DNA of 44,278 nucleotides, from the UHGV virus genome UHGV-0261880, one strand, 5' to 3'. Shown here in pieces: positions 6,959 to 44,113 of this stretch (position 1 is its first letter; each line of letters starts with the position of its first letter). The DNA comes from a virus. A program made the position numbers and the translations under genes. The notes under the pieces were generated by a model that saw only the letters and a list, made by a program, of their open reading frames with translations, searched no databases and was not told the DNA's origin.

Positions 6959-6987
6959 TTGCACACCCCAATATAATAGGGTACTAT
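6959..6987 (+). promoter_or_regulatory. Sigma70-like promoter TTGCAC-N17-TACTAT with embedded palindrome AATAG-ggta-CTATT
   Basis: TTGCACaccccaatataatagggTACTATtca about 30 nt upstream of the 7016 start; near-identical copies at 16871 (+), 29274 (-), 28141 (-). Confidence 0.5.
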
Positions 6988-7015
6988 TCACCCGTAACTT
7001 ATTGAGGAAATAATT

Positions 7016-9023: not shown

Positions 9024-9577
9024 TGGCTAAGGTAATTATTCTTAATGGCCCTGCGGGTTGCGGGAAAGACACGCTTGCTATGGCGCTGGTAGAAATGGGC
9101 TTTGCGAAAGGAACTACCAGTTTCAAGAATCCAATGTTCAATATTGCTTTGGCAGCGTTAGGCCCGGATGCTTACCACGAATTTCTCGACGGCTACGACG
9201 ACCGGGCGCGGAAAGAAAAGCCAGAGGGTTTTCTCAATGGGTTGTCCCGTCGTCAGTTCATGATTGCCATTTCTGAGCAATTCATTAAACCGGTATTCGG
9301 TGATGATTATTTCGGTAAGTATCTCGCTGAAAACTTGCCTGACGGCGACGAAGTTTTTGTAGTGTCCGACGGTGGATTCGCCAGTGAAGTTGCCCCTATC
9401 GTCGCCGCGGGGCATGACGTGCGAATCGTCCGCCTCCATCGTGACGGCTATACGTTCATCGGCGATAGCCGGGAGTATCTGTACGATGTTAGTGGTGTAA
9501 AAGATTACGACACCTACATCATACAGGGTGACGTTAAATCGAACGTTATAGACATTGCTTTAAAATTAGGTTTGTAA
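9023..9577 (+). CDS. P-loop nucleotide kinase, dNMP-kinase-like (T4 gp1 family)
   Basis: 184 aa; Walker A GPAGCGKDT at residues 9-17; overall pattern resembles T4 gene 1 dNMP kinase from memory; translationally coupled to the HAD gene. Confidence 0.65.
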   Translation: MAKVIILNGPAGCGKDTLAMALVEMGFAKGTTSFKNPMFNIALAALGPDAYHEFLDGYDDRARKEKPEGFLNGLSRRQFMIAISEQFIKPVFGDDYFGKYLAENLPDGDEVFVVSDGGFASEVAPIVAAGHDVRIVRLHRDGYTFIGDSREYLYDVSGVKDYDTYIIQGDVKSNVIDIALKLGL

Positions 9578-9601
9578 GAAAAAGGCCCCGAAAGGGGCCT
9601 T
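9576..9601. terminator. Stem-loop AAGGCCCC-GAAA-GGGGCCTT with flanking A/T run (efficient mainly for minus-strand readthrough)
   Basis: 8-bp GC-rich stem; on the minus strand it is followed by TTTTTC; lies just after the kinase stop. Confidence 0.5.
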
Positions 9602-9614
9602 ATCACAGTAGGAG

Positions 9615-10109
9615 ATGATTATGGATTGGAATGAATTTTTCATATACGATTTAATTTCAGGAAGGATATTTAACAGAGTAACCCGGTCCGGGAGGGCTAA
9701 GGCTGGAGAGGAAGCAGGTACTGTCCAGCGAGACGGATATAGAAGGATATTTTTCCGTGGTAAATGGCATGCGGCGCACCGTATAGCTTGGGACTTAAAC
9801 AATCCTAACGATAAGCTAACCTCGTCAGATCAAATAGACCATCTAGACCATGACCGAATAAACAATAGACCGCTTAACTTAGCTAAAAAGTCCAATGCGG
9901 AAAACCATAAAAATATGTCAAAACAGCGTAATAATAAATCAGGAGTAACCGGAGTTTACTGGAATGCGAAAGAAAGGTTGTGGTACGCACAGATATTCAA
10001 CAATAACGTAAAAACACATATCGGGTGCTTTAAGACGCTACTAGATGCAGTTGCCGCGAGGAGAGTTGCTGAAAGAGATTTGGGGTTCCACGAGAACCAC
10101 GGTAAATAG
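9615..10109 (+). CDS. HNH homing endonuclease with C-terminal AP2-type DNA-binding domain
   Basis: 164 aa; HNH core HAAHRIAW...DHLDHDRINNR; C-terminal SGVTGVYWNAKERLWYAQI...GCFKTLLDAVAARRVAE is AP2-like; AT-rich relative to neighbours. Confidence 0.8.
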   Translation: MIMDWNEFFIYDLISGRIFNRVTRSGRAKAGEEAGTVQRDGYRRIFFRGKWHAAHRIAWDLNNPNDKLTSSDQIDHLDHDRINNRPLNLAKKSNAENHKNMSKQRNNKSGVTGVYWNAKERLWYAQIFNNNVKTHIGCFKTLLDAVAARRVAERDLGFHENHGK

Positions 10110-10110
10110 T

Positions 10111-10137
10111 AAGGCCCCTTTCGGGGCCTTTTCCTTA
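10111..10137 (+). terminator. Rho-independent terminator AAGGCCCC-TTTC-GGGGCCTT + TTTCCTT
   Basis: Exact reverse complement of the 9582 hairpin, placed immediately after the HNH stop; U-tract on plus strand. Confidence 0.55.
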
Positions 10138-11307
10138 CGCGTAGCTAATACGCTGTATTACAATAGAAGATTGATATTGATTGCCTGTGGACTGTCCTTC
10201 TATGCTCTGAGTGATTGACTCAGGTCCGCCAATCTCTGGCGTAACCGCCGTAAGCTCTGCGCGTTTCAAACTGAAAGACATAGCCCCGTTTACCCCCGCC
10301 AGAATAGAGTTAATCTCTACCTGCTGCTCGTTGATAAACTTCTGAATCATCGCCATGTCGTATAGCTTGCCGGAGATGGAGAAGGTGTTTGCCGCGCGGC
10401 TACGTTCCACAAACGCTACGTTAGTGTTGCCGAGTTCGAACTGCGCGGATGCGCTGTTATCGTTGGTGATGGTCAGACTATCACAACGCAACGGCGTAGA
10501 ACCGTCGAACACAGACACATCTACAGACGAGAACGGCTCGTCACCAAACGTGACAGAGGAGAAATCAGAACCAGACGGCGGCTCGGTGAGAATCTCCTGA
10601 CTGCGACCGATGAACGGGAAGCTACCTGTAACCATCGCGTTAACCGCCTGCTCAACGGTAAAACCTGAAACTTCCACGCCTTTAGTCAACGTGTACGCGT
10701 CAGTCCCGCCGCACTGGCCTTTGTACCAGGTAAGAATAGAGAACGTCTTACACTGACTACCAGTCTCCAGCTTATCCCCGGTCTTAGCAGCGGTAGTAAC
10801 AGTCTCTGCGGTCAGAGTGTGCTGGATACCCGTACCAGTGACAACAGTCGCACTTATTTCGGTTACGATAAACGGTTTGGCGTTATCGCCCGTTAAGTCG
10901 GTGAACGCAATCAGGTCGCCTACTTCAACGCCGTCGGTAATAAAGCTACCGGTGGAGCGTGTAAAGGTCTTGCCAGCCGGTGCGACGGTAATCGACAGCC
11001 CTGACAGCGAGACACCTGATTGCCACGTAGAGCCTAAAGCACCTGCCAGCCAGTCATCCTGGCTACGCGAGCTAAGTTCGATAGCGTATTCACCGCTAAC
11101 CTGTTTGTTACCGGTGCGGATGGACGTAGTTTCACGGCTGCCGTCCAGTTCATTGGAGGTCAGCGTGTCTCGGGTAATAGCGGGAACACCGCCAGTGTTA
11201 CGCAACGGCGACCAGACAGGGTTGTCTGGGGTCACGCCCGGGGTAACTTCCGCCACATAGAATTGCGCGGTATTCGCGCCCTTAAAAGGAGTTGTAGCCA
11301 TACTCAC
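10135..11307 (-). CDS. Major tail (tube) protein
   Basis: 390 aa Thr/Ser/Gly-rich beta-type protein, last gene of the head-tail operon before the chaperone pair; call by synteny. Confidence 0.55.
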   Translation of the reverse strand: MSMATTPFKGANTAQFYVAEVTPGVTPDNPVWSPLRNTGGVPAITRDTLTSNELDGSRETTSIRTGNKQVSGEYAIELSSRSQDDWLAGALGSTWQSGVSLSGLSITVAPAGKTFTRSTGSFITDGVEVGDLIAFTDLTGDNAKPFIVTEISATVVTGTGIQHTLTAETVTTAAKTGDKLETGSQCKTFSILTWYKGQCGGTDAYTLTKGVEVSGFTVEQAVNAMVTGSFPFIGRSQEILTEPPSGSDFSSVTFGDEPFSSVDVSVFDGSTPLRCDSLTITNDNSASAQFELGNTNVAFVERSRAANTFSISGKLYDMAMIQKFINEQQVEINSILAGVNGAMSFSLKRAELTAVTPEIGGPESITQSIEGQSTGNQYQSSIVIQRISYA

Positions 11308-16870: not shown

Positions 16871-16899
16871 TTGCACACACCGATATAATAGGGTACTAT
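16871..16899 (+). promoter_or_regulatory. Sigma70-like promoter TTGCAC-N17-TACTAT with embedded palindrome
   Basis: TTGCACacaccgatataatagggTACTATtca, 30 of 32 nt identical to the 6959 element; ~30 nt upstream of the 16932 GTG start. Confidence 0.5.
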
Positions 16900-16931
16900 T
16901 CATTGCATCGAAACGAGAGGAGGGGTATAAA

Positions 16932-17246
16932 GTGAAAGATGAATTTAAAGGTACGAAAGGACCGTGGGAGTTCAAGAAAGAAAAAGGAGAGCAGGAATGG
17001 TTCGTGTTCCAGAAAGGCTCATTAAAGAAAATGTACGGCTGTACTATACGGACGCCAGTAGCCGAAGAAATTAATGATAAACATGACGCCGAACTTATTT
17101 CCTCGGCTCCGGAGTTACTTGAAGCTCTTCGCCAGCTTCGCGATTATGTTGAGGATGTTTGCGCGGTATCTTCTGATGATTGCCATGAAGACCATCCATT
17201 AAATCTAGCCAACAGAGCAATCAAGAAAGCATTAGGAAAGAAATAA
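16932..17246 (+). CDS. Hypothetical protein, opposite-strand insertion in head module
   Basis: 104 aa, GTG start with GAGGAGGGG RBS; own promoter and terminator; antisense to flanking head genes; ~42% GC. Confidence 0.6.
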   Translation: MKDEFKGTKGPWEFKKEKGEQEWFVFQKGSLKKMYGCTIRTPVAEEINDKHDAELISSAPELLEALRQLRDYVEDVCAVSSDDCHEDHPLNLANRAIKKALGKK

Positions 17247-17250
17247 AACT

Positions 17251-17275
17251 AAGGCCCCATAACGGGGCCTTTTAT
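17251..17275. terminator. Bidirectional terminator AAGGCCCC-ATAAC-GGGGCCTT
   Basis: 8-bp GC stem followed by TTTATC on plus and preceded by AAATAAAA (T-run on minus); between convergent genes. Confidence 0.55.
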
Positions 17276-17736: not shown

Positions 17737-18812
17737 TATTCCCCTTTCAGATAGTCAGCGACACGTTTATCGAGTTCCGCCATCTGCTTAAGCGTGAGCG
17801 GATTCCCGAAACCATCTACAGATATTACGCGAAACTCTTCCGGTGATATACCGCTGTTGCGGAAAATCTTACCCCGCACCGGGCCGAGAGCCTGGTCCTG
17901 AAACCATGCCGGTTGTTGTTTCAGGAACTCGTAGTACGTGGTGTCTGCGCTTACCTGAGTACCACCATCTGCGCCTTTAGCAGCACGTTTTGCGCCTTTA
18001 TCCAGGAAGTCGAACTCCGAGCTAATTACCGGCGCAGTGGTGCTTCTGCACCCAAAATGGGCGGGGGGCATTGGCCCTTTACCTATTTCCCACGTCATCC
18101 CGTCTCTGGCCCTGCAAATCGTACTGGTACGGCTGTCCAGCGTTGACACCCACTCGTATTTCTCTATGATATCGTCGTTCTGGCGGTACGTCTCGTTGCG
18201 TGCTTCGTTGGACACATGGGACAACGCAGTGCGGATTACGGTAGCTGCGTTTCGTTCTGAGATATCCGCCAGCCCACCAGCGCCCACGACATTCTTAACA
18301 ATCTGCCGTGTGGTTTGGCCTTGTACAAAGCCCATCTTAACGCCGGTTACCAGGCGCGCGACCTCCGCTTCGCCCCAACCTGACATCAGTTTAGCGAAGT
18401 CAACCGGCTTGTAACTTAACGATAATGGCTGAAACTCAGCAGCGGCCCACACCTGCTCGGCGGTAGGTGTAACAAATTCCGCGTTAACGTTAGCCGTCAG
18501 TGTCTTAGCATTCCACTCAGCCTCATATGCAGCCAGTTCTTTAAGGTCTTCTGTCAGTTTTGTTTGCCAGTCACCTGTAAGTCCGGTCAGTGCTTCTTCG
18601 AGGTCGCGTAACAGTTTATTCAGTCGCCGTGTGGAGCGACCGTCGTCGCCGAATAGCAACACCTGCCGTTTGATTTCATCCCGCATTTCCTGAATGAACG
18701 GTGCAAGGTCTTTCACTTCTCCGGAAGCGGTTCGTTGCAGCCATATCTGGTGGCTGATTAGAGATGTAAGTAAGCTCATAGATACACCCTGTGGCGCTAA
18801 AGTTAATAGCAT
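17736..18812 (-). CDS. Head morphogenesis protein (Mu F / SPP1 gp7-like minor head protein)
   Basis: 358 aa directly after portal; size and position typical of this family. Confidence 0.65.
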   Translation of the reverse strand: MLLTLAPQGVSMSLLTSLISHQIWLQRTASGEVKDLAPFIQEMRDEIKRQVLLFGDDGRSTRRLNKLLRDLEEALTGLTGDWQTKLTEDLKELAAYEAEWNAKTLTANVNAEFVTPTAEQVWAAAEFQPLSLSYKPVDFAKLMSGWGEAEVARLVTGVKMGFVQGQTTRQIVKNVVGAGGLADISERNAATVIRTALSHVSNEARNETYRQNDDIIEKYEWVSTLDSRTSTICRARDGMTWEIGKGPMPPAHFGCRSTTAPVISSEFDFLDKGAKRAAKGADGGTQVSADTTYYEFLKQQPAWFQDQALGPVRGKIFRNSGISPEEFRVISVDGFGNPLTLKQMAELDKRVADYLKGE

Positions 18813-18848
18813 ACTATAAGAAAGCCCCTTTCGGGGCTATATGTGAAC

Positions 18849-27075: not shown

Positions 27076-27290
27076 TTCTCCTGTTTACCGAGTCGCTTAG
27101 GTGAGCAGATAGCGCGTACCTCTGAATCGTTGGGCTTGTCGCCCTGAAACAGGAAGTGCGCGTTCTCTGCGGCGCGTGCTGCAGACTGGCACGCCTCCAT
27201 CGAATAAAACGTTTCTGCTGCCGCGAGTTGCATCTGGCCTGCGGACAGTACCCAGATAAATAAGATGCTGGTCATTTCTTTAACCCGCAT
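27072..27290 (-). CDS. Small secreted protein (signal peptide)
   Basis: 72 aa; N-terminus MTSILFIWVLSAGQMQLAAAE signal-peptide-like. Confidence 0.45.
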   Translation of the reverse strand: MRVKEMTSILFIWVLSAGQMQLAAAETFYSMEACQSAARAAENAHFLFQGDKPNDSEVRAICSPKRLGKQEK

Positions 27291-27685
27291 TTAAGGCACA
27301 TACATGGAAACCCTACTCCGTAAAATTGCCATTCGTGCTCGCATTCTTCAGGTTTAGCCACACCACATTTACGGCAATACGGGGTCCCAAGTCTATTCCC
27401 AAAAACTACCACACATCGCCACTCATGCTCGCATTCCTGGGTATCGTCCTTACGGCACCCGGATTGCTCAGGCACGTACCCACCTTTGCGTATAAGTTTG
27501 TACGCCTCCACGTCACCAGCAGCGGTAGCCAATGCCATATGTAACTCCTTAATCTGCGCTGACGCATCACGTAACTGATTCTTAAGTGACTGCACCTCGT
27601 GCGCCAGGTCTTCGCACTGGTTGTTATTTACCTGCTGCCGTAGCTGTTCAATCAGGTACTCGAATACTTCGTTTTTGTTACTCAT
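27272..27685 (-). CDS. Cys-rich protein with duplicated ECEHEW...C..C motif (zinc-ribbon-like) and N-terminal coiled coil
   Basis: 137 aa; ...TQECEHEWRCVVVFGNRLGTPYCRKCGVAKPEECEHEWQFYGVGFPCMCLKCG. Confidence 0.5.
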   Translation of the reverse strand: MSNKNEVFEYLIEQLRQQVNNNQCEDLAHEVQSLKNQLRDASAQIKELHMALATAAGDVEAYKLIRKGGYVPEQSGCRKDDTQECEHEWRCVVVFGNRLGTPYCRKCGVAKPEECEHEWQFYGVGFPCMCLKCGLKK

Positions 27686-27870
27686 AATACGTCTCCTACT
27701 AACCCAACCTTCATGATGCCGCGTTCACCTTTCTTGCCGGCGCGAAGCCACTCACGCGCAACTTTCTCATCAGTGAACACGAATTTCGGTACGTGCTTTC
27801 CGTCAGGGGCGATAACCCATGACGACCATACCGGGGTAACTTTAATCAAATGCTCGTTTTTGTTACTCAT
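27682..27870 (-). CDS. Hypothetical protein
   Basis: Track ORF trimmed to internal ATG MSNKNEHLIK...; shares first 17 nt with the 27685 gene. Confidence 0.4.
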   Translation of the reverse strand: MSNKNEHLIKVTPVWSSWVIAPDGKHVPKFVFTDEKVAREWLRAGKKGERGIMKVGLVGDVL

Positions 27871-28081
27871 CTTCTGGCTCCTCCCCGTTATATTCTTCGA
27901 ACACAAAGTCGTCGTCCGCAGATAGCGCCCACCAACCATACCCGGTGTAATAGACGTCAAGTTCAGTGCCGTTGTCGTCTATTATGTAGCATCGGCTCTC
28001 GTCGCCGTCTTCTTTGAGGTGGTACAAGTCATTTTTAGTCAGCGCCCAATAACCATCGTAGGATTTGCATTCCAGGAACAT
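27863..28081 (-). CDS. Hypothetical acidic protein
   Basis: 72 aa; first gene after the 28141 promoter. Confidence 0.4.
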   Translation of the reverse strand: MFLECKSYDGYWALTKNDLYHLKEDGDESRCYIIDDNGTELDVYYTGYGWWALSADDDFVFEEYNGEEPEDE

Positions 28082-28112
28082 CTTCCTTCTCTCCTCTCGT
28101 TTGTGTAAATGA

Positions 28113-28141
28113 ATAGTAGCCTATTCTATCTTAGTGTGCAA
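28113..28141 (-). promoter_or_regulatory. Sigma70-like promoter TTGCAC-N17-TACTAT with embedded palindrome (minus strand)
   Basis: Minus-strand reading TTGCACactaagatagaataggcTACTATtca; same family as 6959/16871/29274. Confidence 0.45.
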
Positions 28142-28218: not shown

Positions 28219-28255
28219 AAAATGAGAAAAATGATACGCTGCTGTGTAGCAGCGT
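28219..28255 (-). terminator. Hairpin ACGCTGCT-GTGT-AGCAGCGT followed by T-rich tract (minus strand)
   Basis: 8-bp stem; plus-strand AAAAATGAGAAAAATGAT upstream gives U-rich tract for minus transcripts. Confidence 0.45.
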
Positions 28256-28289
28256 AAGACACAAAGCCAAATAATAACCTATTGACCTG

Positions 28290-28478
28290 TTACACCGGCG
28301 CCGGTAGCTCAGGTAAGGGCATCCAGTGGGAGATATCACCGTGGTATAAACTCTTCGCTGGCCCCCAGTAGCCATCTGAATTAACACGCATAACCTCACA
28401 ACCGACAAAACCATCAGTTACAAGAACGTATTCATAAGGCTCCGGCATCTGCTCACTACACTTAATCCACTCACCCAT
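28290..28478 (-). CDS. Hypothetical protein (DUF551-like pattern)
   Basis: 62 aa; W/P-rich pattern ...HWMPLPELP. Confidence 0.4.
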   Translation of the reverse strand: MGEWIKCSEQMPEPYEYVLVTDGFVGCEVMRVNSDGYWGPAKSLYHGDISHWMPLPELPAPV

Positions 28479-29217: not shown

Positions 29218-29245
29218 CGCTCCTCGGTTTCGTTTTGATAAGTGA

Positions 29246-29274
29246 ATAGTATCCTATTATATTGGGGTGTGCAA
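29246..29274 (-). promoter_or_regulatory. Sigma70-like promoter TTGCAC-N17-TACTAT with embedded palindrome (minus strand), leftward early promoter
   Basis: Minus-strand reading TTGCACaccccaatataataggaTACTATtca, 31 of 32 nt identical to the 6959 plus-strand copy. Confidence 0.5.
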
Positions 29275-29708
29275 GAGAATAGTTACGTTGCCGTTGTGAT
29301 TCTTCAGGTAGGGTTGTGCCTTTATTCTTATTACTTGGTAACTAAAGGGCAGGCCCTAAGCCTGCCCAATAATCGTTACATTTTTACGGTTGCGAATCTA
29401 CGGCACTTTAAGAAAATCAGATACTTAAGATATATTCCGCCGATGGGAATAGAGCTTGCCCAGGGCAACCGGAGATACTTAGGAAGGAAAGTTACGATAA
29501 TTCGAATGTTCAGTAAACTGCCGCCTAACACTTCGCGTTGGGCGCTCGTTTTCGGCGGGTTTTACAAGGTGAACAGGAATCAAAGTAACTAAGATATAGA
29601 AGCACCTTAAACGAAGATTTTCTTAATGTCAATAGGTGCGATTATGTTTGATTTCCCATTATTCGCAATGTATACTTGGTTTCGTTAACTGATAATGGGG
29701 GTTTGAGA

Positions 29709-32712: not shown

Positions 32713-32732
32713 AATTATTTTAGAAAAGCCCA

Positions 32733-32761
32733 TTGACAAGTGAATAGTTGGCTATTATAGT
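32733..32761 (+). promoter_or_regulatory. Sigma70-like promoter TTGACA-N17-TATAGT with embedded palindrome AATAG-ttgg-CTATT
   Basis: Consensus -35, 17-bp spacer; 32 nt upstream of the 32793 start. Confidence 0.55.
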
Positions 32762-32792
32762 TAGCCCATACCAAACGAGAGGAGAGAAACAA

Positions 32793-33302
32793 ATGTTAGA
32801 GAAATTCTTAGTATTACTGGAACGTTTCGTAGTTGCACATGAACTGATTGCTGCAAATAGTGTGAAACGCCCGGTGCCGCCGGTTGAGCGTGCAGGTGAA
32901 ATGCTTGTAGACGTGTCGGTTACGGGAGAGGTACTTGAAGTCGACCCAGGCACTGGCGTAGGTAAAGAAATCCCGGTCGAAGGTGAAGACATCGTTGACT
33001 CTAAACCGGCGGAAGAAGAGAAGCCAAAACGCAAGCCGCGTAAAGCTAAAGTAGAGGAACCTACGCCAGAGCCGGAAGAAGAGAAAGAAGAGGTTGATTA
33101 TAAGTCTCTTCGTGACCAGATTCAGGCTATCGACGACGCAATTAACGAAGGTCCGAGCGATGCTGCGTGCGACGATTCCGATGAACTGCTGGAAGAGTTC
33201 ACCGGTAAGAAGATGAAGATTGCCGCGATTAAAGATGAAGACCTGGCTGAATATCTGGAACGCCTGACGGCAATCAAGAACAAGTATTTCGAAGAAGAAT
33301 AA
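32793..33302 (+). CDS. Highly acidic protein, first gene of rightward operon
   Basis: Track ORF trimmed to ATG with GAGAGGAGA RBS; central Glu/Pro/Lys-rich low-complexity region and acidic C-terminus. Confidence 0.5.
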   Translation: MLEKFLVLLERFVVAHELIAANSVKRPVPPVERAGEMLVDVSVTGEVLEVDPGTGVGKEIPVEGEDIVDSKPAEEEKPKRKPRKAKVEEPTPEPEEEKEEVDYKSLRDQIQAIDDAINEGPSDAACDDSDELLEEFTGKKMKIAAIKDEDLAEYLERLTAIKNKYFEEE

Positions 33303-33735: not shown

Positions 33736-34004
33736 TTTATCAACTCTACCTTGCCGTGGACAGGCGGGATAACACAGAGGCTCTGTGGCTGTTGCGTGCG
33801 CCGTCGGGTGCGCACCAGATGGAAGAGATGGCGTACTTAGGCAAAGTACCGCGGCCTAAAGATATAGGCCGTCACGTGTCGCAGATTAAGCGCACGACAT
33901 TCGCCAAACCTGACTTTTATGTCTTCGAGTCGATGTATGGGTGGGCTATGCACTGCGACCATAAGACCAGACATTTAATTGACCAGTGGGAGAACAGGGT
34001 ATGA
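33732..34004 (+). CDS. Hypothetical protein
   Basis: 90 aa, coupled to neighbours. Confidence 0.45.
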   Translation: MIYQLYLAVDRRDNTEALWLLRAPSGAHQMEEMAYLGKVPRPKDIGRHVSQIKRTTFAKPDFYVFESMYGWAMHCDHKTRHLIDQWENRV

Positions 34005-35242
34005 TTCTAAAAGAACGCGGCGGTAATAACGATGTGCACTCCCTGTTGTCGCCGTCTGGGGCTAAAAAGTGGCTGGCGTGCAGTGCGTCACTGGCCTGTG
34101 AAAAAGATATCCCTAACACGTCCGGTAAAGCTGCTGTTACGGGGACCGCGTGCCACACTATAGCAGAGGTCCATCTAAACCAGTACATCAAAGGCACTGC
34201 ATTGCCGTTAGAGCGCGAAGTAGGTGCTTACGTGCTGGAAGAAGGCAAAGGTCAGATTAAGGCGCTAATCAGCCCGATGAAAGGCGCGGTACTGATTACG
34301 GCTGATATGATTGAGCAGGTTCGCAAGTACACCGACTACTGCAAAGCAATTATCGACGTCGCGACTTACGCCAAGCTGGAAATGCGCGTCAATCTTACTG
34401 AGGTATTGCATCCAGGCTATGAAGGCGTTGAGACGTTCGGGACTGCTGACCTTGTTGCCGTCCAGGAACTGGCTAACACCGACGAGCACATGCTAATCAT
34501 CGGCGACCTGAAAACAGGACGACATCGTGTCGAAGCGAAAGAAAACAAGCAGCTTATGCTTTACGCTCTCGGTGTCTATCGCCGACTCAAGAGACGTTAC
34601 AACATCACCGTGGTTCGCCTGGGCATCTTCCAGCCGTACGCCGGGGGCGCGTCGGAGTGGGACATCTCGGTTGAAGGTCTGGAACTGTTCGCTAAGTTCG
34701 CACAGAAACGCGCGCTGTTAGCTCTCGATGCGTATTTCCGTGGCAAGAAGAACCTGAAAGCGTCGGACTTCAGGCCGTCGGTCGATGGTTGTCAGTGGTG
34801 TCGGTTCTCAGAGCAGTGCGCCGCGCGTACAAAAACCGTTAATTCCGTACTGGCGGAAGAACTGGAAGACGACTTTGCGCTGGAACTGACGCCAGAGCAA
34901 CTCGTCGCTGAGTATGAGAAGTTGCCGTTGTTGCGCCAGCACATCGACAAGGTTGAGAAAGCGATGGCTGCTGCTTTGCATTCTGGTAAGAAAGTGCCGG
35001 GGTACAAGTTGGTTGAGGGCCGCCCTGGTAATCGTGCGTGGAAAGACGCAGAGAAAGTAGCAGAACTCTACGGCGACAAGCTGACTAAAGAAGTGCTTAT
35101 GGCGCCGACCGAGGCCGTTAAAGTTATACCGGAAGAAGAACTGAAAGGCTTCATTACCCGTAAGCCCGGTGCGCCATGCGTCGCAACGGCAGACGACAAA
35201 CGACCAGAGTGGAATCAGGTTAGTGAAGAAGATTTAGAATAA
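34001..35242 (+). CDS. PD-(D/E)XK exonuclease, Cas4-like (DUF2800-type) with Cys cluster
   Basis: Track ORF trimmed to ATG (MILKERGG...) overlapping upstream stop; GTADLV...IGDLKTG...QLMLYALG nuclease motifs; N-terminal Cys in LACSAS and C-terminal CQWCRFSEQC. Confidence 0.75.
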   Translation: MILKERGGNNDVHSLLSPSGAKKWLACSASLACEKDIPNTSGKAAVTGTACHTIAEVHLNQYIKGTALPLEREVGAYVLEEGKGQIKALISPMKGAVLITADMIEQVRKYTDYCKAIIDVATYAKLEMRVNLTEVLHPGYEGVETFGTADLVAVQELANTDEHMLIIGDLKTGRHRVEAKENKQLMLYALGVYRRLKRRYNITVVRLGIFQPYAGGASEWDISVEGLELFAKFAQKRALLALDAYFRGKKNLKASDFRPSVDGCQWCRFSEQCAARTKTVNSVLAEELEDDFALELTPEQLVAEYEKLPLLRQHIDKVEKAMAAALHSGKKVPGYKLVEGRPGNRAWKDAEKVAELYGDKLTKEVLMAPTEAVKVIPEEELKGFITRKPGAPCVATADDKRPEWNQVSEEDLE

Positions 35243-35246
35243 AGTC

Positions 35247-35275
35247 TTGACACCTGAATAGTTAGCTATTATAGT
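35247..35275 (+). promoter_or_regulatory. Sigma70-like promoter TTGACA-N17-TATAGT with embedded palindrome AATAG-ttag-CTATT
   Basis: Near-identical to the 32733 promoter; ~55 nt upstream of the 35331 start. Confidence 0.55.
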
Positions 35276-35330
35276 TCTAATCACTGGCCGGGCAGTTCCC
35301 GGAGTAAACTGAAAACTGAGGAATCGAGAT

Positions 35331-35954
35331 ATGGGACTGAAATTAAATCTGCGTAAAGTAAACACTGCTTGGGTTAACGTATTCGAACGCGAAAAAGACC
35401 GTGAAAACGATGATGGCTCAATCACTAAAGGCCAGTACAGCGCAACTATTATCCTGCCGTCTGACCATGCTCAAATCGATGCGCTATACGACACTGTTTA
35501 CGCTGTGGTTGAAGAAGCGTTAGGCGCAGCCGCCGCCGAGAAATGGATGAAGTCCAACTACGGCGAGGGTAAGCACATGGATAAATGCGCGATTAAAGAC
35601 ATTGCCGAGCGCGACAATCCGTTTGAAGACTTCCCGGAAGGCTTCTACTTCAAAGCGAAGGCACAGAAACAGCCGCTGATTGTAACCTCTAAAAAAGGCG
35701 AGACTCAGGTAGAGCAGGACTTCAACGTAGACGGCGAACAGATTGAAGGTGAACAGGTTTACAGCGGCTGCGTCGCTAACGTAAGCGTCGAAATCTGGTT
35801 CAGCCAGAAATACAAAGTCCTCGGCGTTAACCTGTTGGCGATTAAATACGTGGGTGAAGGTAAAGCGTTCGGCGGTTCTAAAGTCGCTGCTAGCGTCAAT
35901 GACCTGGAAGATGACGAAGAAGACGCACCGCGTCGCGAACGTCGCCGCCGTTAA
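35331..35954 (+). CDS. SSB-like protein (DUF2815-type) with acidic C-terminal tail
   Basis: 207 aa; C-terminus ...NDLEDDEEDAPRRERRRR; position between Cas4-like nuclease and DNA polymerase. Confidence 0.5.
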   Translation: MGLKLNLRKVNTAWVNVFEREKDRENDDGSITKGQYSATIILPSDHAQIDALYDTVYAVVEEALGAAAAEKWMKSNYGEGKHMDKCAIKDIAERDNPFEDFPEGFYFKAKAQKQPLIVTSKKGETQVEQDFNVDGEQIEGEQVYSGCVANVSVEIWFSQKYKVLGVNLLAIKYVGEGKAFGGSKVAASVNDLEDDEEDAPRRERRRR

Positions 35955-38748: not shown

Positions 38749-38897
38749 CAATGTTTGTATTTTGGATGATAGTAACCATGCTTGCACTGCTACTCGGTGC
38801 GGGAATAGCTGCGATGTTCTGTTATGGTCTGTTATTTAAGTTTGTTGGCGTTGCCGTTCTAGGCGGGGCTTTCCTTACCTGGATTCTGCGGTCATGA
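38745..38897 (+). CDS. Tiny membrane protein (50 aa), below cutoff
   Basis: ATGA overlap with both neighbours; MTMFVFWMIVTMLALLLGAGIAAMFCYGLLFKFVGVAVLGGAFLTWILRS. Confidence 0.35.
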   Translation: MTMFVFWMIVTMLALLLGAGIAAMFCYGLLFKFVGVAVLGGAFLTWILRS

Positions 38898-39196
38898 CCC
38901 CGGAAGGCAAGATTCAGAAATACTCAAAAGAGCGATTCGAGGCCCTGGGCGGCCTCGTACGCAAATTGTCGTACGAAAATAGAGTGGGCGCTCCTGACCT
39001 GCTGGTAATCCTCCCCGGCGGCATCGTATGGTTCGTTGAGGTTAAGAAAGACGAAAACACGAAGCCAGACCCGCACCAGTTACGGGAGCACGATAGGATG
39101 CGTAAACGTGGCGCGAATGTTTTTGTCGTCGGTTCGTTCAAACAGGTTGACGACCTAATAGCGAACTATTATAGTAGCCATACACCAACAATATAA
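38894..39196 (+). CDS. VRR-NUC domain nuclease (PD-(D/E)XK)
   Basis: 100 aa; GAPDLLVILPGGIVWFVEVKKDE gives the D...EVK catalytic pattern. Confidence 0.65.
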   Translation: MTPEGKIQKYSKERFEALGGLVRKLSYENRVGAPDLLVILPGGIVWFVEVKKDENTKPDPHQLREHDRMRKRGANVFVVGSFKQVDDLIANYYSSHTPTI

Positions 39197-41826: not shown

Positions 41827-41960
41827 ACATCATAGCCCCAATTCCAGCATTGCAAAAACGTATCAAGGAACTTGAGGAAGAGGTTCTACGACTACGGCAA
41901 CAGAGAGATGCCGCTAATGCGCAACTGGCGTTTGTGCTGGAGAAGCTATCAGAAGAGTAG
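41823..41960 (+). CDS. Small coiled-coil peptide (45 aa), below cutoff
   Basis: ATGA overlap with Toprim gene; MNIIAPIPALQKRIKELEEEVLRLRQQRDAANAQLAFVLEKLSEE; followed by terminator. Confidence 0.35.
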   Translation: MNIIAPIPALQKRIKELEEEVLRLRQQRDAANAQLAFVLEKLSEE

Positions 41961-41964
41961 CGAA

Positions 41965-41984
41965 AAGGCCCCTAAAGGGGCCTT
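41965..41984. terminator. Terminator hairpin AAGGCCCC-TAAA-GGGGCCTT + AGTTTTATTT between convergent genes
   Basis: 8-bp GC stem; U-tract on plus strand; same stem sequence as hairpins at 9582, 10111 and 17251. Confidence 0.55.
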
Positions 41985-41992
41985 AGTTTTAT

Positions 41993-44113
41993 TTACCCAA
42001 TAACAGTCCCATCAGTAAGGCTTGTTGGCGGGGAACCAAATTTACGCACTAACTGATTTGATGAGTTTTTAAACAAATAGAATTTGCTACCAAATTCCAT
42101 GCATGGAATACCTGTTCCTGTGGTTGTAGCCAATCCGAGATTTGTTGCAATGAATGCCTTTCCATCGAAATTAATAATATTATTTACGTTATTTACCCCG
42201 TGGTAGTTTGAAATCGAACTAACCCAGTCTACAGCTGTAGTTTTTGGATTAGTAATGTTCAATGCATTTGCAGCTGCCGTCAGCGTGTCTATGCGCAGAT
42301 TGTCGATAGTTACTTTTCCGTAATTATCGATTATCCATGAAGTAGCTGGATTGCGTATATCGATGTTACGTCCTACAAACTCGCTAATGTTCTTTATTCT
42401 CGGAGCGGTTTTAATTCCGGTCAAGGTGCAAGTATAGTTCTCGACTTTGACGACCCCAAAGGTATCTCCTCCGTTAGTCGTGTTTATACTGAGAGCATTC
42501 TGCACGTTTTCACTTGTTACATTTAAAATTTTAGCATCAATTGCGCCAGAGTTCTCAATATTAACGTCAGTGTTAGCACCGTTTATGTACACACCATCGA
42601 GTGTAGCTTTACGAGTAAGTGGAGAGTTGCTCGGATACATGCTAATGATAAACCCCATCGTATTATGACGAACTGATGGGTCATCTTCATCCTCTACCGT
42701 ATTCTGGTGATAGATTCTTGTACCTTGCCCTATGTACACGTCATAGCTTCCAGATAGACGCATACCCCACTTGCCTTTCTTACTCCCGATATTGTTGCAA
42801 TATGCACCGAGAACAACCCCAGACGATATCTGGAATACAGGGCTGCCGTCAGAATTGTCTTCAGAGGTCATCAATATTGGCTCTCTCCAGCGGGATACCT
42901 GATATGACCCGCCAATTACCTTGAAGTTAGCGGTACTGTGGAAGGCCATGCCGTTACGGTCAGTGTCATAAGTGCGACAACGCGTCACCTGCACATCAGT
43001 ACAGAACTTAAACATTATCCCAGGTTGACCGCCACGAGAGCCATAAGCATTAACAACCGAGCAGTCAGTTAATTTAATGCGAGTGGCCTGGTGGAACCAG
43101 AAACCATTAAATGTTGACGTATCTACTGTTGTGTCCCACGTCACATTAGACTTATTACCATCAATAACAAGTCCATTTACGGTGATGTCATAATGCTCAG
43201 GGATACCTGCGTCATAAGTATACGCCTTACGGTTGGTTATCCCGGTGGAAATGCTTGGGTAGTGACCGGGTTTTAATTTCAGCGTACATCCGTAAGCATT
43301 AATTGTTGTACCGGGCTTAACAATTAAAGGTGTCCCGTCCCAATAAATTGTTCGTGCGGGGAAAGCAATCGTCGAGGCTCCTGAATTTAGCGCGGCCTTA
43401 ATGGCTGCCGTATGATCCCCAGCAGTTTCCATTGCTGGAGTAATGAAGCTCTCTACGCTGACGTGTGCACCATACCCACGATGCCCATTGCCCTGTGAAT
43501 ACCAGTTACTATCTGGCGCGCTACCCGGTGCGATGCTAACTGGGAATGTGGACGCCCCCTTATATGCATACCAATTCCCATCAGCAGCCTGGGCCAGGTC
43601 GTTCGGGCCTGACACTGAACCACCGGCAGCAAAAGTAACACGTCTGGTAGTAGCAGTTTTGGCGTAGTCACTGTAGACGGTACCGCCAAAACTGCTACCG
43701 ACTATCTTATCGCCGTTGCTTTCTAAATCGTTTCTCAAATCAGGGTCCGTCTGAGGTTTCCAATCCGCATTACCCACAGGGTTAAAACCTGCTGGAACCG
43801 TAACAGGCAGAGCACCGGCGTACGAGTACCACGTCTTGCTTACAGGGTCATACACCACTTTGTCACGGTCATTAACTGTTAACGTACCGCCGGTAGAAAA
43901 GTCCCACGACACAGGAGAAAATCCAGCGTCACGCAACACGGCGGGGAGCGTTTTTTGGGTCTGGCCTGTAACAGGGTTGGTCGCGTAATCGATATTGGTA
44001 CCCCCAGCAACCCCGCCGGATTTGCCGGTGATAACCTCGGCCTCGAAAATCTGGTGCTTCTTGGCGGTTTGTAAATCCGCCAGGCTTAAAACGTCACCAC
44101 ATCCGCTTGACAT
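41993..44113 (-). CDS. Tailspike / tail fibre with right-handed beta-helix (pectate-lyase-like) central region
   Basis: 706 aa; central segment rich in short repeated Asn/Gly/Thr/Val turns (VIDGNKSNVTWDTTVDTS...VQVTRCRTYDTDRNGMAFHS...) typical of beta-helix depolymerases; AAAGAGGA RBS. Confidence 0.7.
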   Translation of the reverse strand: MSSGCGDVLSLADLQTAKKHQIFEAEVITGKSGGVAGGTNIDYATNPVTGQTQKTLPAVLRDAGFSPVSWDFSTGGTLTVNDRDKVVYDPVSKTWYSYAGALPVTVPAGFNPVGNADWKPQTDPDLRNDLESNGDKIVGSSFGGTVYSDYAKTATTRRVTFAAGGSVSGPNDLAQAADGNWYAYKGASTFPVSIAPGSAPDSNWYSQGNGHRGYGAHVSVESFITPAMETAGDHTAAIKAALNSGASTIAFPARTIYWDGTPLIVKPGTTINAYGCTLKLKPGHYPSISTGITNRKAYTYDAGIPEHYDITVNGLVIDGNKSNVTWDTTVDTSTFNGFWFHQATRIKLTDCSVVNAYGSRGGQPGIMFKFCTDVQVTRCRTYDTDRNGMAFHSTANFKVIGGSYQVSRWREPILMTSEDNSDGSPVFQISSGVVLGAYCNNIGSKKGKWGMRLSGSYDVYIGQGTRIYHQNTVEDEDDPSVRHNTMGFIISMYPSNSPLTRKATLDGVYINGANTDVNIENSGAIDAKILNVTSENVQNALSINTTNGGDTFGVVKVENYTCTLTGIKTAPRIKNISEFVGRNIDIRNPATSWIIDNYGKVTIDNLRIDTLTAAANALNITNPKTTAVDWVSSISNYHGVNNVNNIINFDGKAFIATNLGLATTTGTGIPCMEFGSKFYLFKNSSNQLVRKFGSPPTSLTDGTVIG

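Follow-up and report, generated by a model that had tools for sequence, protein, structure and literature searches.

Mycobacteriophage Island3 carries an inserted gene, gene 68, the final 18 codons of which (~50 bp) are a copy of the end of the neighboring gene 67 (Pope et al. 2011, PMC3029335). The PeSLs of T4-type phages are cassettes that combine a promoter with a terminator stem-loop, span tens of base pairs and occur in many copies (Arbiol et al. 2010, PMC2839356; PMC4122927). The internal proteins of T4 are otherwise unrelated to one another and have a common N-terminal capsid targeting sequence (PMC3012670). We compare these systems with a pair of adjacent genes, here called A and B, in the window, that is, the whole stretch of 44,278 nucleotides analyzed (virus genome UHGV-0261880). 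The concept of short boundary sequences reportedly traces to Susskind and Botstein and to the lambdoid phage literature, and in phage T7, in work associated with Studier and with Pierce and Masker, deletion between short direct repeats is said to become more frequent as the repeat lengthens.

The window is a Kagunavirus-like siphophage (Guernseyvirinae). With the annotated relative Bas72 as a guide to gene context, we place A and B inside a block of small genes flanked by the holin/endolysin genes on one side and a divergent regulatory region on the other, in an operon that lies upstream of the lysis genes and runs in the order 72-aa gene, A, B and another 72-aa gene. The operon stands behind a promoter-like element, TTGCAC-N17-TACTAT (28113-28141, minus strand), which belongs to a family repeated in this genome. 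At its head is a 15-nt leader/Shine-Dalgarno element, AAACGAGAGGAGAGA (28088-28102, minus strand), which recurs identically on the plus strand at 32773-32787, and a terminator-like hairpin upstream of the promoter-like element (28235-28256, minus strand) marks off the transcription unit. Matches to the region come from 291 phage records, chiefly of Escherichia Kagunavirus and Salmonella Jerseyvirus; they are always fragmented into 3-6 pieces, and in none of the 291 do they cover 80% of a 1.5-kb query.

The locus resembles that of Island3 gene 68 in that an optional small gene, carried by some relatives and missing from others, is edged by a short direct repeat lying in the coding sequence of its neighbor, in that the arrangement is read as recombination at a short shared sequence, and in that the direction, insertion or deletion, is undecidable. 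It differs in that the repeat occupies the 5′ end (start codon and five further codons) and measures 17 nt instead of ~50 bp, in that the same 17 nt also form a stop/start overlap, and in that one cassette boundary recurs in three upstream contexts, with a second locus besides. Phage mosaic joints of this kind are known, and the locus is a clean new case of one, adding a hybrid start, the stop/start overlap and the second insertion locus.

An identical start on two adjacent genes

The 17-mer ATGAGTAACAAAAACGA occurs exactly twice in the window, both times on the minus strand and 185 nt apart. Copy 1 (27854-27870) is the start of gene A (27682-27870, minus strand), an accessory cassette that encodes 62 residues beginning MSNKNEHLIKV; copy 2 (27669-27685) is the start of gene B (27272-27685, minus strand), which encodes 137 residues beginning MSNKNEVFEYL (MSNKNEVFEYLIEQLRQQ). 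The flanks of the two copies are unrelated. At 27870 the minus strand reads GGGGAGGAGCCAGAAG ATGAGTAACAAAAACGA GCATTTG and at 27685 it reads GTAGGAGACGTATT ATGAGTAACAAAAACGA AGTATTC, all 17 of 17 bases being shared and base 18 being the first to differ (codon GAG in A, GAA in B, E either way). By BLASTP the two proteins have only MSNKNE in common, as expected from the sequence-only reading of this DNA, which had noticed two adjacent genes that share an identical 17-nt start and then diverge. A third copy is absent from the window even with up to two mismatches allowed, and 100 dinucleotide-preserving shuffles searched at the same tolerance contained none. The 17-nt prefix of A and B (ATG plus 14 nt) is the sole repeated one among the 1,271 ATGs of the window, in which all other pairs of ORF starts share 10 nt or fewer. 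The shuffles and the prefix statistics together exclude a chance origin of the identity.

Among the 12 bases 5′ of the ATG, 7 match between A and B, mainly in the Shine-Dalgarno sequence. That of gene A, GGGGAGGAG (27878-27886, minus strand), lies within the 3′ end of the upstream 72-aa gene, and that of gene B, AGGAG (27693-27697, minus strand), within the 3′ end of gene A. Because the only match upstream of the ATG is Shine-Dalgarno-like, the repeat corresponds to a coding start and not to the entire initiation region. The earlier suggestion that a translation-initiation region had been duplicated or recombined is supported for the coding start by the filled and empty sites and the shared alleles described below, and does not extend to the Shine-Dalgarno sequences, which fall outside the repeat. 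We found no promoter or terminator match overlapping the 17-mer, and at the starts of A and B neither an Rfam match nor significant RNA folding. On the latter two grounds we rejected an RNA element or riboswitch at the gene starts.

Gene A is rare, being present in 18 GenBank records (~11 Kagunavirus phages) and in 11 clusters among 5.8 billion proteins. Its conserved length of 62 codons and its dN/dS of 0.07-0.34 indicate that it is a real gene under purifying selection. Searches of Pfam, PHROGs and PADLOC with A gave no match, and Foldseek comparison of its AlphaFold model (pLDDT 63) with the PDB returned nothing with an E value below 1. A transposon with a target-site duplication was likewise rejected, in that no inverted repeats were reported within 27669-27870 and the sole ORF, of 62 aa, has no match to a mobility gene.

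The position of A beside B and their common start would also fit an origin of A as a diverged or frameshifted partial tandem duplicate of B, and MAFFT does extend a weak similarity ~13 nt past the 17-mer if a 1-nt gap is allowed. However, BLASTP finds nothing past MSNKNE, the local alignment scores of the A body against 28 variants of B fall within the shuffle null, a positional alignment gives p = 0.13, and gene A also occurs at another locus without B. Such a duplication is therefore extremely unlikely, and we set aside the idea that A and B are tandem paralogues, the BLASTP and shuffle results revealing no homology along the gene bodies.

Filled and empty sites and mosaic junctions

We compared 9 GenBank loci that carry gene A, 34 from IMG/VR that carry gene B and a further 5, from metagenomes, that carry gene A. 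A unit of 185 nt on the minus strand, consisting of one 17-mer and the A body (27686-27870 or, equivalently, 27669-27853), is present in some of these loci and absent from others (L064, L078, L079, L065 and L066), and the filled and empty forms occur in three upstream contexts with edges exactly at the repeat. Where the 72-aa gene lies upstream, A is present in the window and in SZH-1 and absent from L064 and L078. In the promoter/leader context, A is present in fFiEco02, fFiEco03, K1G and L096-L098 and absent from L079; the promoter-like element lies directly 5′ of gene A in fFiEco02, fFiEco03 and K1G and directly 5′ of gene B in L079. Downstream of a 42-aa ORF, A is present in NTEC3, phiEc4, 590B and K-01 and absent from L065 and L066. 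In L064, L078 and L088, a lone 17-mer aligns to both copies of the window, which is the signature of a 185-nt indel with direct-repeat edges; the polymorphism is bounded by the repeat, and one copy is left in the empty site. The double exact 17-mer is also present in fFiEco02 and fFiEco03, so that the search for the 17-mer in related phages that the sequence-only reading had called for yields further genomes of the same kind.

Similarity also breaks at the repeat. Gene B has at least nine unrelated upstream neighbors, in all of which the loci are collinear up to its ATG. Gene A and the 72-aa gene are two of them; the others comprise a 90-aa gene with the leader, the promoter/leader on its own, a DUF551-like gene of 103 aa, three ORFs (75, 51 and 55 aa) and the divergent 'VCDGD' proteins of 39-58 aa. 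Between 24.5 and 30.7 kb, the ends of BLAST segments pile up at practically all boundaries between genes, irrespective of shared sequence. Bin 27680-27699 holds the most ends (31), and ~25 loci stop exactly at 27685, although this prominence is partly an ascertainment effect of having retrieved the loci by way of gene A or gene B. The start of B is the sharpest and commonest similarity breakpoint in the region, yet it is one joint among many. Identities on the two sides of the 17-mer are discordant as well. The A body of the window is closest to the NTEC3 type (95.8%) and then to fFiEco03 (94%), both of which have other upstream genes. SZH-1 has the same 72-aa gene as the window (91%), and its A body is farther off (88.6%). 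The three contexts, the breakpoint bin and the discordant identities agree with the earlier proposal of a recombination point for cassette swapping, and the contrary outcome that it had envisaged, an identity confined to this genome with no junctions in relatives, is the opposite of what the relatives contain.

These patterns could in principle be the aftermath of one ancient illegitimate event that made the duplicate start, with later reshuffling carried out by longer homologies or by random joins filtered at gene borders, and with the 17-mer as no preferred substrate. The breakpoints at almost all gene boundaries, whether or not sequence is shared there, speak for such an account, and gene B contains an indel of a 41-codon module that lacks a flanking repeat. 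The chimeric proteins P0011 and P0003 point to joins at arbitrary places, and the literature favors illegitimate recombination for most phage mosaic joints (PMC3029335). The 41-codon module rules out that every indel here is repeat-bounded and, together with the breakpoints that lack shared sequence, indicates that homology is not required for mosaic joints in this region. What speaks against a mere relic is that the clean boundary recurs in three upstream contexts, that three different start alleles are common to A and B, and that each of three upstream sequences (72-aa gene, 42-aa ORF, leader) can precede both A and B, which needs a joint inside the shared start. We consider a relic of this kind unlikely, and think it probable that A has been inserted or removed at the start of B by recombination at the 17-mer, with the start module acting as a portable stop/start joint.

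Gene A is not restricted to the neighborhood of B. In L094 and L095, a homolog of A lies at a second locus between two copies of the leader AAACGAGAGGAGAGA, and the gene A that encodes P0006 is the first gene of this other operon, beside an HTH regulator and a helicase-primase. The window holds the corresponding empty site (32719-32800, plus strand), which consists of a promoter, the leader AAACGAGAGGAGAGA and ATGTTAGAG. The presence of gene A at this locus with a leader on both sides would show the same cassette moving by way of repeated initiation sequences. It also recalls the PeSLs, where small non-essential genes of variable regions lie between repeated expression signals that mediate their shuffling; here it is the promoter-like element and the 15-nt leader/Shine-Dalgarno element that flank A. 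These repeats are closer to PeSLs than the 17-mer is and partly fit the feature of dispersed copies. The 17-mer lies in coding sequence and, with no overlapping promoter or terminator, no hairpin or other RNA structure and only two copies, was rejected as a PeSL.

Start alleles and the stop/start overlap

The 5′ end of gene B is a conserved module, MSNKNEVFEYLI(D/E)QLRQQV (27629-27685, minus strand), with 90-98% DNA identity in relatives from the ATG on. Beyond it, the protein has a coiled-coil segment and, at the C terminus, two zinc-ribbon-like repeats of the CxxC type. Searches of Pfam, PHROGs and PADLOC with B found nothing beyond phrog_6094, which has no assigned function, and coiled-coil noise. 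The family is large and mosaic, with 1,315 protein clusters of 86-237 aa. MSNKNE opens 71 of the 120 best clusters, with MNSKNE, MNTKNE, MNNKNE, MSSKNE, MSDKNE and MSTKNE as minor starts. In 122 GenBank phage records, the opening ~60 nt of B match the window at 95-98% identity, and in phages without gene A the match opens at the ATG of B (query position 15-16 in ~22 of 25 listed non-A matches). In IMG/VR the exact 17-mer has 49 matches, never two in one locus, and those in Kaguna/Jersey-like contigs are all starts of gene B homologs, MSNKNE[VI]FE[YW]L…, most of which continue IDQLRQQ. The start module is thus probably native to gene B, which is widespread in Kagunavirus/Jerseyvirus phages. Third codon positions of the module looked invariant, but the idea that its nucleotide conservation is unusual was discarded, its 90-97.5% identity not exceeding that of neighboring modules (85-97%).

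Divergent homologs of A, from K1G and metagenomes, keep another start, ATGnnTAATTCAARCGAR. In K1G it reads ATGTTTAATTCAAACGAG (MFNSNE), in P0006/L094 it reads ATGGGTAATTCAAGCGAA (MGNSSE), and P0007 begins MVNSNE. Since this different start is retained in divergent homologs, including the P0006/L094 gene, whose locus does not adjoin gene B, gene A probably has an older N terminus of its own. The window-type start of A, ATGAGTAACAA|AAACGA|GCATTTG, matches gene B through base 17 and the K1G-type A from base 12 on, and so looks like a hybrid in which positions 1-11 of B are joined to A at a 6-nt crossover interval, the microhomology AAACGA. The effective crossover interval, perhaps 6-9 nt, may amount to a microhomology only. 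A 'conversion patch' between K1G and fFiEco03, with 6 of 9 differences in codons 2-4, is suggestive by a rough binomial estimate when taken alone, and becomes convincing only in combination with the A start at the second locus.

The alleles AGT AAC, AAY ACT and AAC AGT of codons 2-3 are each found on A and on B in different phages, and that three alleles are common to the two genes points to repeated exchange. The allele tracks the upstream gene because the upstream ORF overlaps the module. In the window, the upstream 72-aa gene (27863-28081, minus strand; product ending EEYNGEEPEDE) overlaps copy 1 with its last codons, its stop codon being bases 6-8 of the 17-mer (TAA, 27865-27863), and gene A in turn ends on the TGA at bases 2-4 of copy 2 (27684-27682). 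The upstream stop therefore lies in or near the downstream start at both copies. Of 33 junction contexts, 26 have the upstream stop within the module, at bases 6-8 in 15 contexts, at bases 2-4 in 6 and at bases 9-11 in 5. Such overlaps may couple translation of the downstream gene to that of the upstream one.

A-rich codons after the ATG favor expression in E. coli, and the A-rich AGT AAC AAA AAC GA might have evolved twice for efficient, unstructured initiation, with no recombination involved. In keeping with this, the initiation region of gene B is less structured than shuffles (z = +1.43), and the 17-mer also opens unrelated genes on unrelated viral contigs, namely those of a marine family of 309-aa proteins (~26 contigs) and of about six singletons. 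Convergence would nevertheless have to produce identity at every synonymous position of codons 2-5 in adjacent genes, which is improbable (a synonymously recoded form of copy 1 is, for example, ATGTCTAATAAGAATGAG). Nor does it fit well with the covariation of the codon 2-3 alleles between A, B and the upstream gene, with the retention of another start by divergent A genes, or with a presence/absence unit that ends exactly at the repeat. We regard convergence as very unlikely.

Selection could instead have held the peptide identical, were MSNKNE a tag for targeting or processing that A and B both carry. As in the T4 internal proteins, neighboring unrelated proteins have nothing in common except an identical N-terminal leader (PMC3012670), and the hexapeptide is conserved in most of the 120 gene B clusters. 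A and B differ from the T4 proteins in that the shared peptide is only 6 aa long and varies at positions that go with the 3′ end of the upstream gene. Positions 2-3 of this very short peptide vary freely (S/N, N/T/S/D), divergent A proteins begin MFNSNE, MGNSSE or MVNSNE, and the relative Bas72 has no annotated prohead protease. A constraint on the peptide, moreover, would leave the identity of synonymous sites unexplained. In the structure model of A, residues 1-4 are disordered (pLDDT <50), and the model carries no information on this reading. In our estimation, a tag selected in this way is highly improbable.

Probable recombination at the shared start

The reading that we favor, recombination at the shared start, rests on comparison of extant sequences and can be set out as follows. 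The 17-mer would be the 5′ edge of a short portable stop/start junction made up of the ATG and the first five codons of the downstream gene, with TGA (bases 2-4) and TAA (bases 6-8) in the other two frames able to end any upstream gene. Gene A, small and optional, would have had an older start of its own, ATGnnTAATTCAARCGAR. In the lineage of the window, an unequal crossover guided by microhomology would have joined the B start of one genome to the A start of another within AAACGA (bases 12-17), placing the first ~11 bases of B, together with the upstream neighbor of B, in front of the A body. The outcome would be the two identical 17-nt starts 185 nt apart, which then form a direct repeat at which exchange or slippage could gain or lose A and swap upstream genes. 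Both directions fit the comparisons, whether A was inserted or was repeatedly deleted and whichever of its starts is ancestral.

The catalysts would probably be the Gp2.5-like annealing protein of the phage and an exonuclease, or else host RecA-independent slippage. The window encodes a Gp2.5-like ssDNA annealing protein (35331-35897), two exonucleases (one of them at 34001-35239) and a Holliday-junction resolvase (38897-39175), and Gp2.5 is a recognized phage recombinase family (PMC2896510). A Gp2.5-type annealing protein and an exonuclease, together with a 17-nt direct repeat whose copies are 185 nt apart, make the situation like that of T7, and precise deletions are to be expected; the T7 data, by contrast, are experimental, and the Kagunavirus case is drawn from natural variants. 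A shared length of 17 nt, or an interval of 6-9 nt, is below the usual minimum for efficient homologous recombination, so the events may be rare illegitimate joins kept by selection.

A more far-reaching possibility is that ATGAGTAAC, with its start codon, A-rich ramp and stops in both other frames, forms with the repeated promoter/leader a maintained 'universal joint' that would allow small accessory genes of Guernseyvirinae phages to enter and leave operons in any frame with translational coupling preserved, or that MSNKNE is after all a functional N-terminal tag. We hold this to be doubtful; a 'universal joint', if true, would be a coding-sequence analogue of the T4 PeSLs or of integron attachment sites.

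The locus reveals no new mechanism or function and belongs to the ordinary cassette swapping of phage genomes. It bears on the old question of whether mosaic joints lie at short conserved sequences or at random, in that both are found here side by side. In stocks that are engineered or propagated, gene A will probably prove unstable, through precise deletion of 185 bp. The same 62-codon gene appears in four contexts and at two loci, each time edged by a repeated piece of translation-initiation sequence, and so provides a nucleotide-resolved case of the gain, loss and movement of a small accessory gene in coliphages that are candidates for therapy.

Modular composition of gene B

Gene B, the 137-aa gene that opens with the shared 17-mer, is built of modules: its N-module and its coiled-coil module (CEDLAHEVQSLKNQLRDAS...) are conserved, a 41-codon module (LPVVDVMGEIERW...) is optional, and the C-termini are of several unrelated kinds. 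In the window, the C-terminus (27272-27440, minus strand) carries a zinc-ribbon-like motif, ECEHEW...C-x2-CG, twice in tandem, and similar DNA (gaatgcgagcatgagtgg and gaatgcgagcacgaatgg) underlies the two repeats. This module is rare among the relatives that we fetched; one database source labels a relative, P0120, as a "predicted nucleic acid-binding Zn-ribbon protein". Gene B is a mosaic in its own right, as seen at 27540-27629 (minus strand) of the window and at 2243-2377 of locus L050. No repeat flanks the internal indel of the gene.

Neighbors of gene B in related phages

In NTEC3 and SCS92, an annotated homing endonuclease gene (in NTEC3, locus L053, 2650-3123) lies directly 3′ of gene B; the window lacks this gene. 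This endonuclease gene is a further mobile element of the same variable block. Upstream of the start module, the 5′ end of gene B, a family of "...LGEL...VCDGD..." proteins is encoded in nine loci (L053, L060, L061, L065, L068, L071, L072, L080 and L088). These proteins are 39-58 aa long and highly divergent (33-50% identity), and one of them is usually encoded ahead of gene B. In such loci, the nucleotide similarity jumps at the gene B ATG, from unalignable before it to ~95% after it, which suggests either diversifying selection on the small "...VCDGD..." gene or its repeated replacement. The window has a DUF551 protein gene (28290-28478, minus strand) immediately 5′ of the terminator and promoter of the gene A/B operon, and DUF551-like genes also adjoin the start module in L059 and L096-L098.

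Chimeras and a second site of gene A

Metagenomes yielded natural chimeras of the 62-aa gene A as well as a copy with a frameshift (proteins P0011, P0003 and P0010; locus L096, 1501-1659). P0011 joins the N-terminal part of the downstream 72-aa gene, which follows gene B in the operon, to the gene A C-terminus. In P0003, gene A is joined to an out-of-frame piece of that same 72-aa gene, an arrangement in which, judging from the protein sequence, gene B has apparently been lost. P0010 is gene A with a frameshift. Together, the three show that illegitimate joins and decay are frequent in the gene A/B block.

Gene A has a second insertion site, which corresponds to 32719-32800 (plus strand) of the window, where the site is empty of any gene A homolog, and to 1440-1720 of L094. 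In the metagenomic contigs L094 and L095, the promoter and leader are followed by a gene A homolog, bracketed by two copies of AAACGAGAGGAGAGA, and then by a 143-aa gene (MLEKFL...).

The 17-mer and repeated elements elsewhere

The exact 17-mer also starts the gene of an unrelated 309-aa protein (MSNKNEEGRQEAEANPYNRKKSWHTDD...), preceded by a strong SD, in ~26 environmental viral contigs (IMG/VR loci L001, L002, L006 and ~23 others), and it begins single unrelated genes in ~6 other viral contigs. Its presence on unrelated genes is probably due to coincidence together with an A-rich start preference.

Repeated GC-rich hairpins (AAAAGGCCCCnnAAGGGGCCTT) occur on both strands at 9574-9602, 10105-10138, 17241-17272, 18812-18837 and 41957-41994, and are likely bidirectional intrinsic terminators common to the whole genome. 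Families of promoter-like elements, TTGCAC...TACTATTCA and TTGACA...GCTATTATAGTT, also recur on both strands of the window (6959-6990, 16871-16902, 29242-29275, 28113-28141, 32719-32762 and 35233-35276), often with the leader AAACGAGAGGAG after them. It is probably these promoter-like elements that mark out the transcription units in this phage group, and they may also serve as recombination joints.
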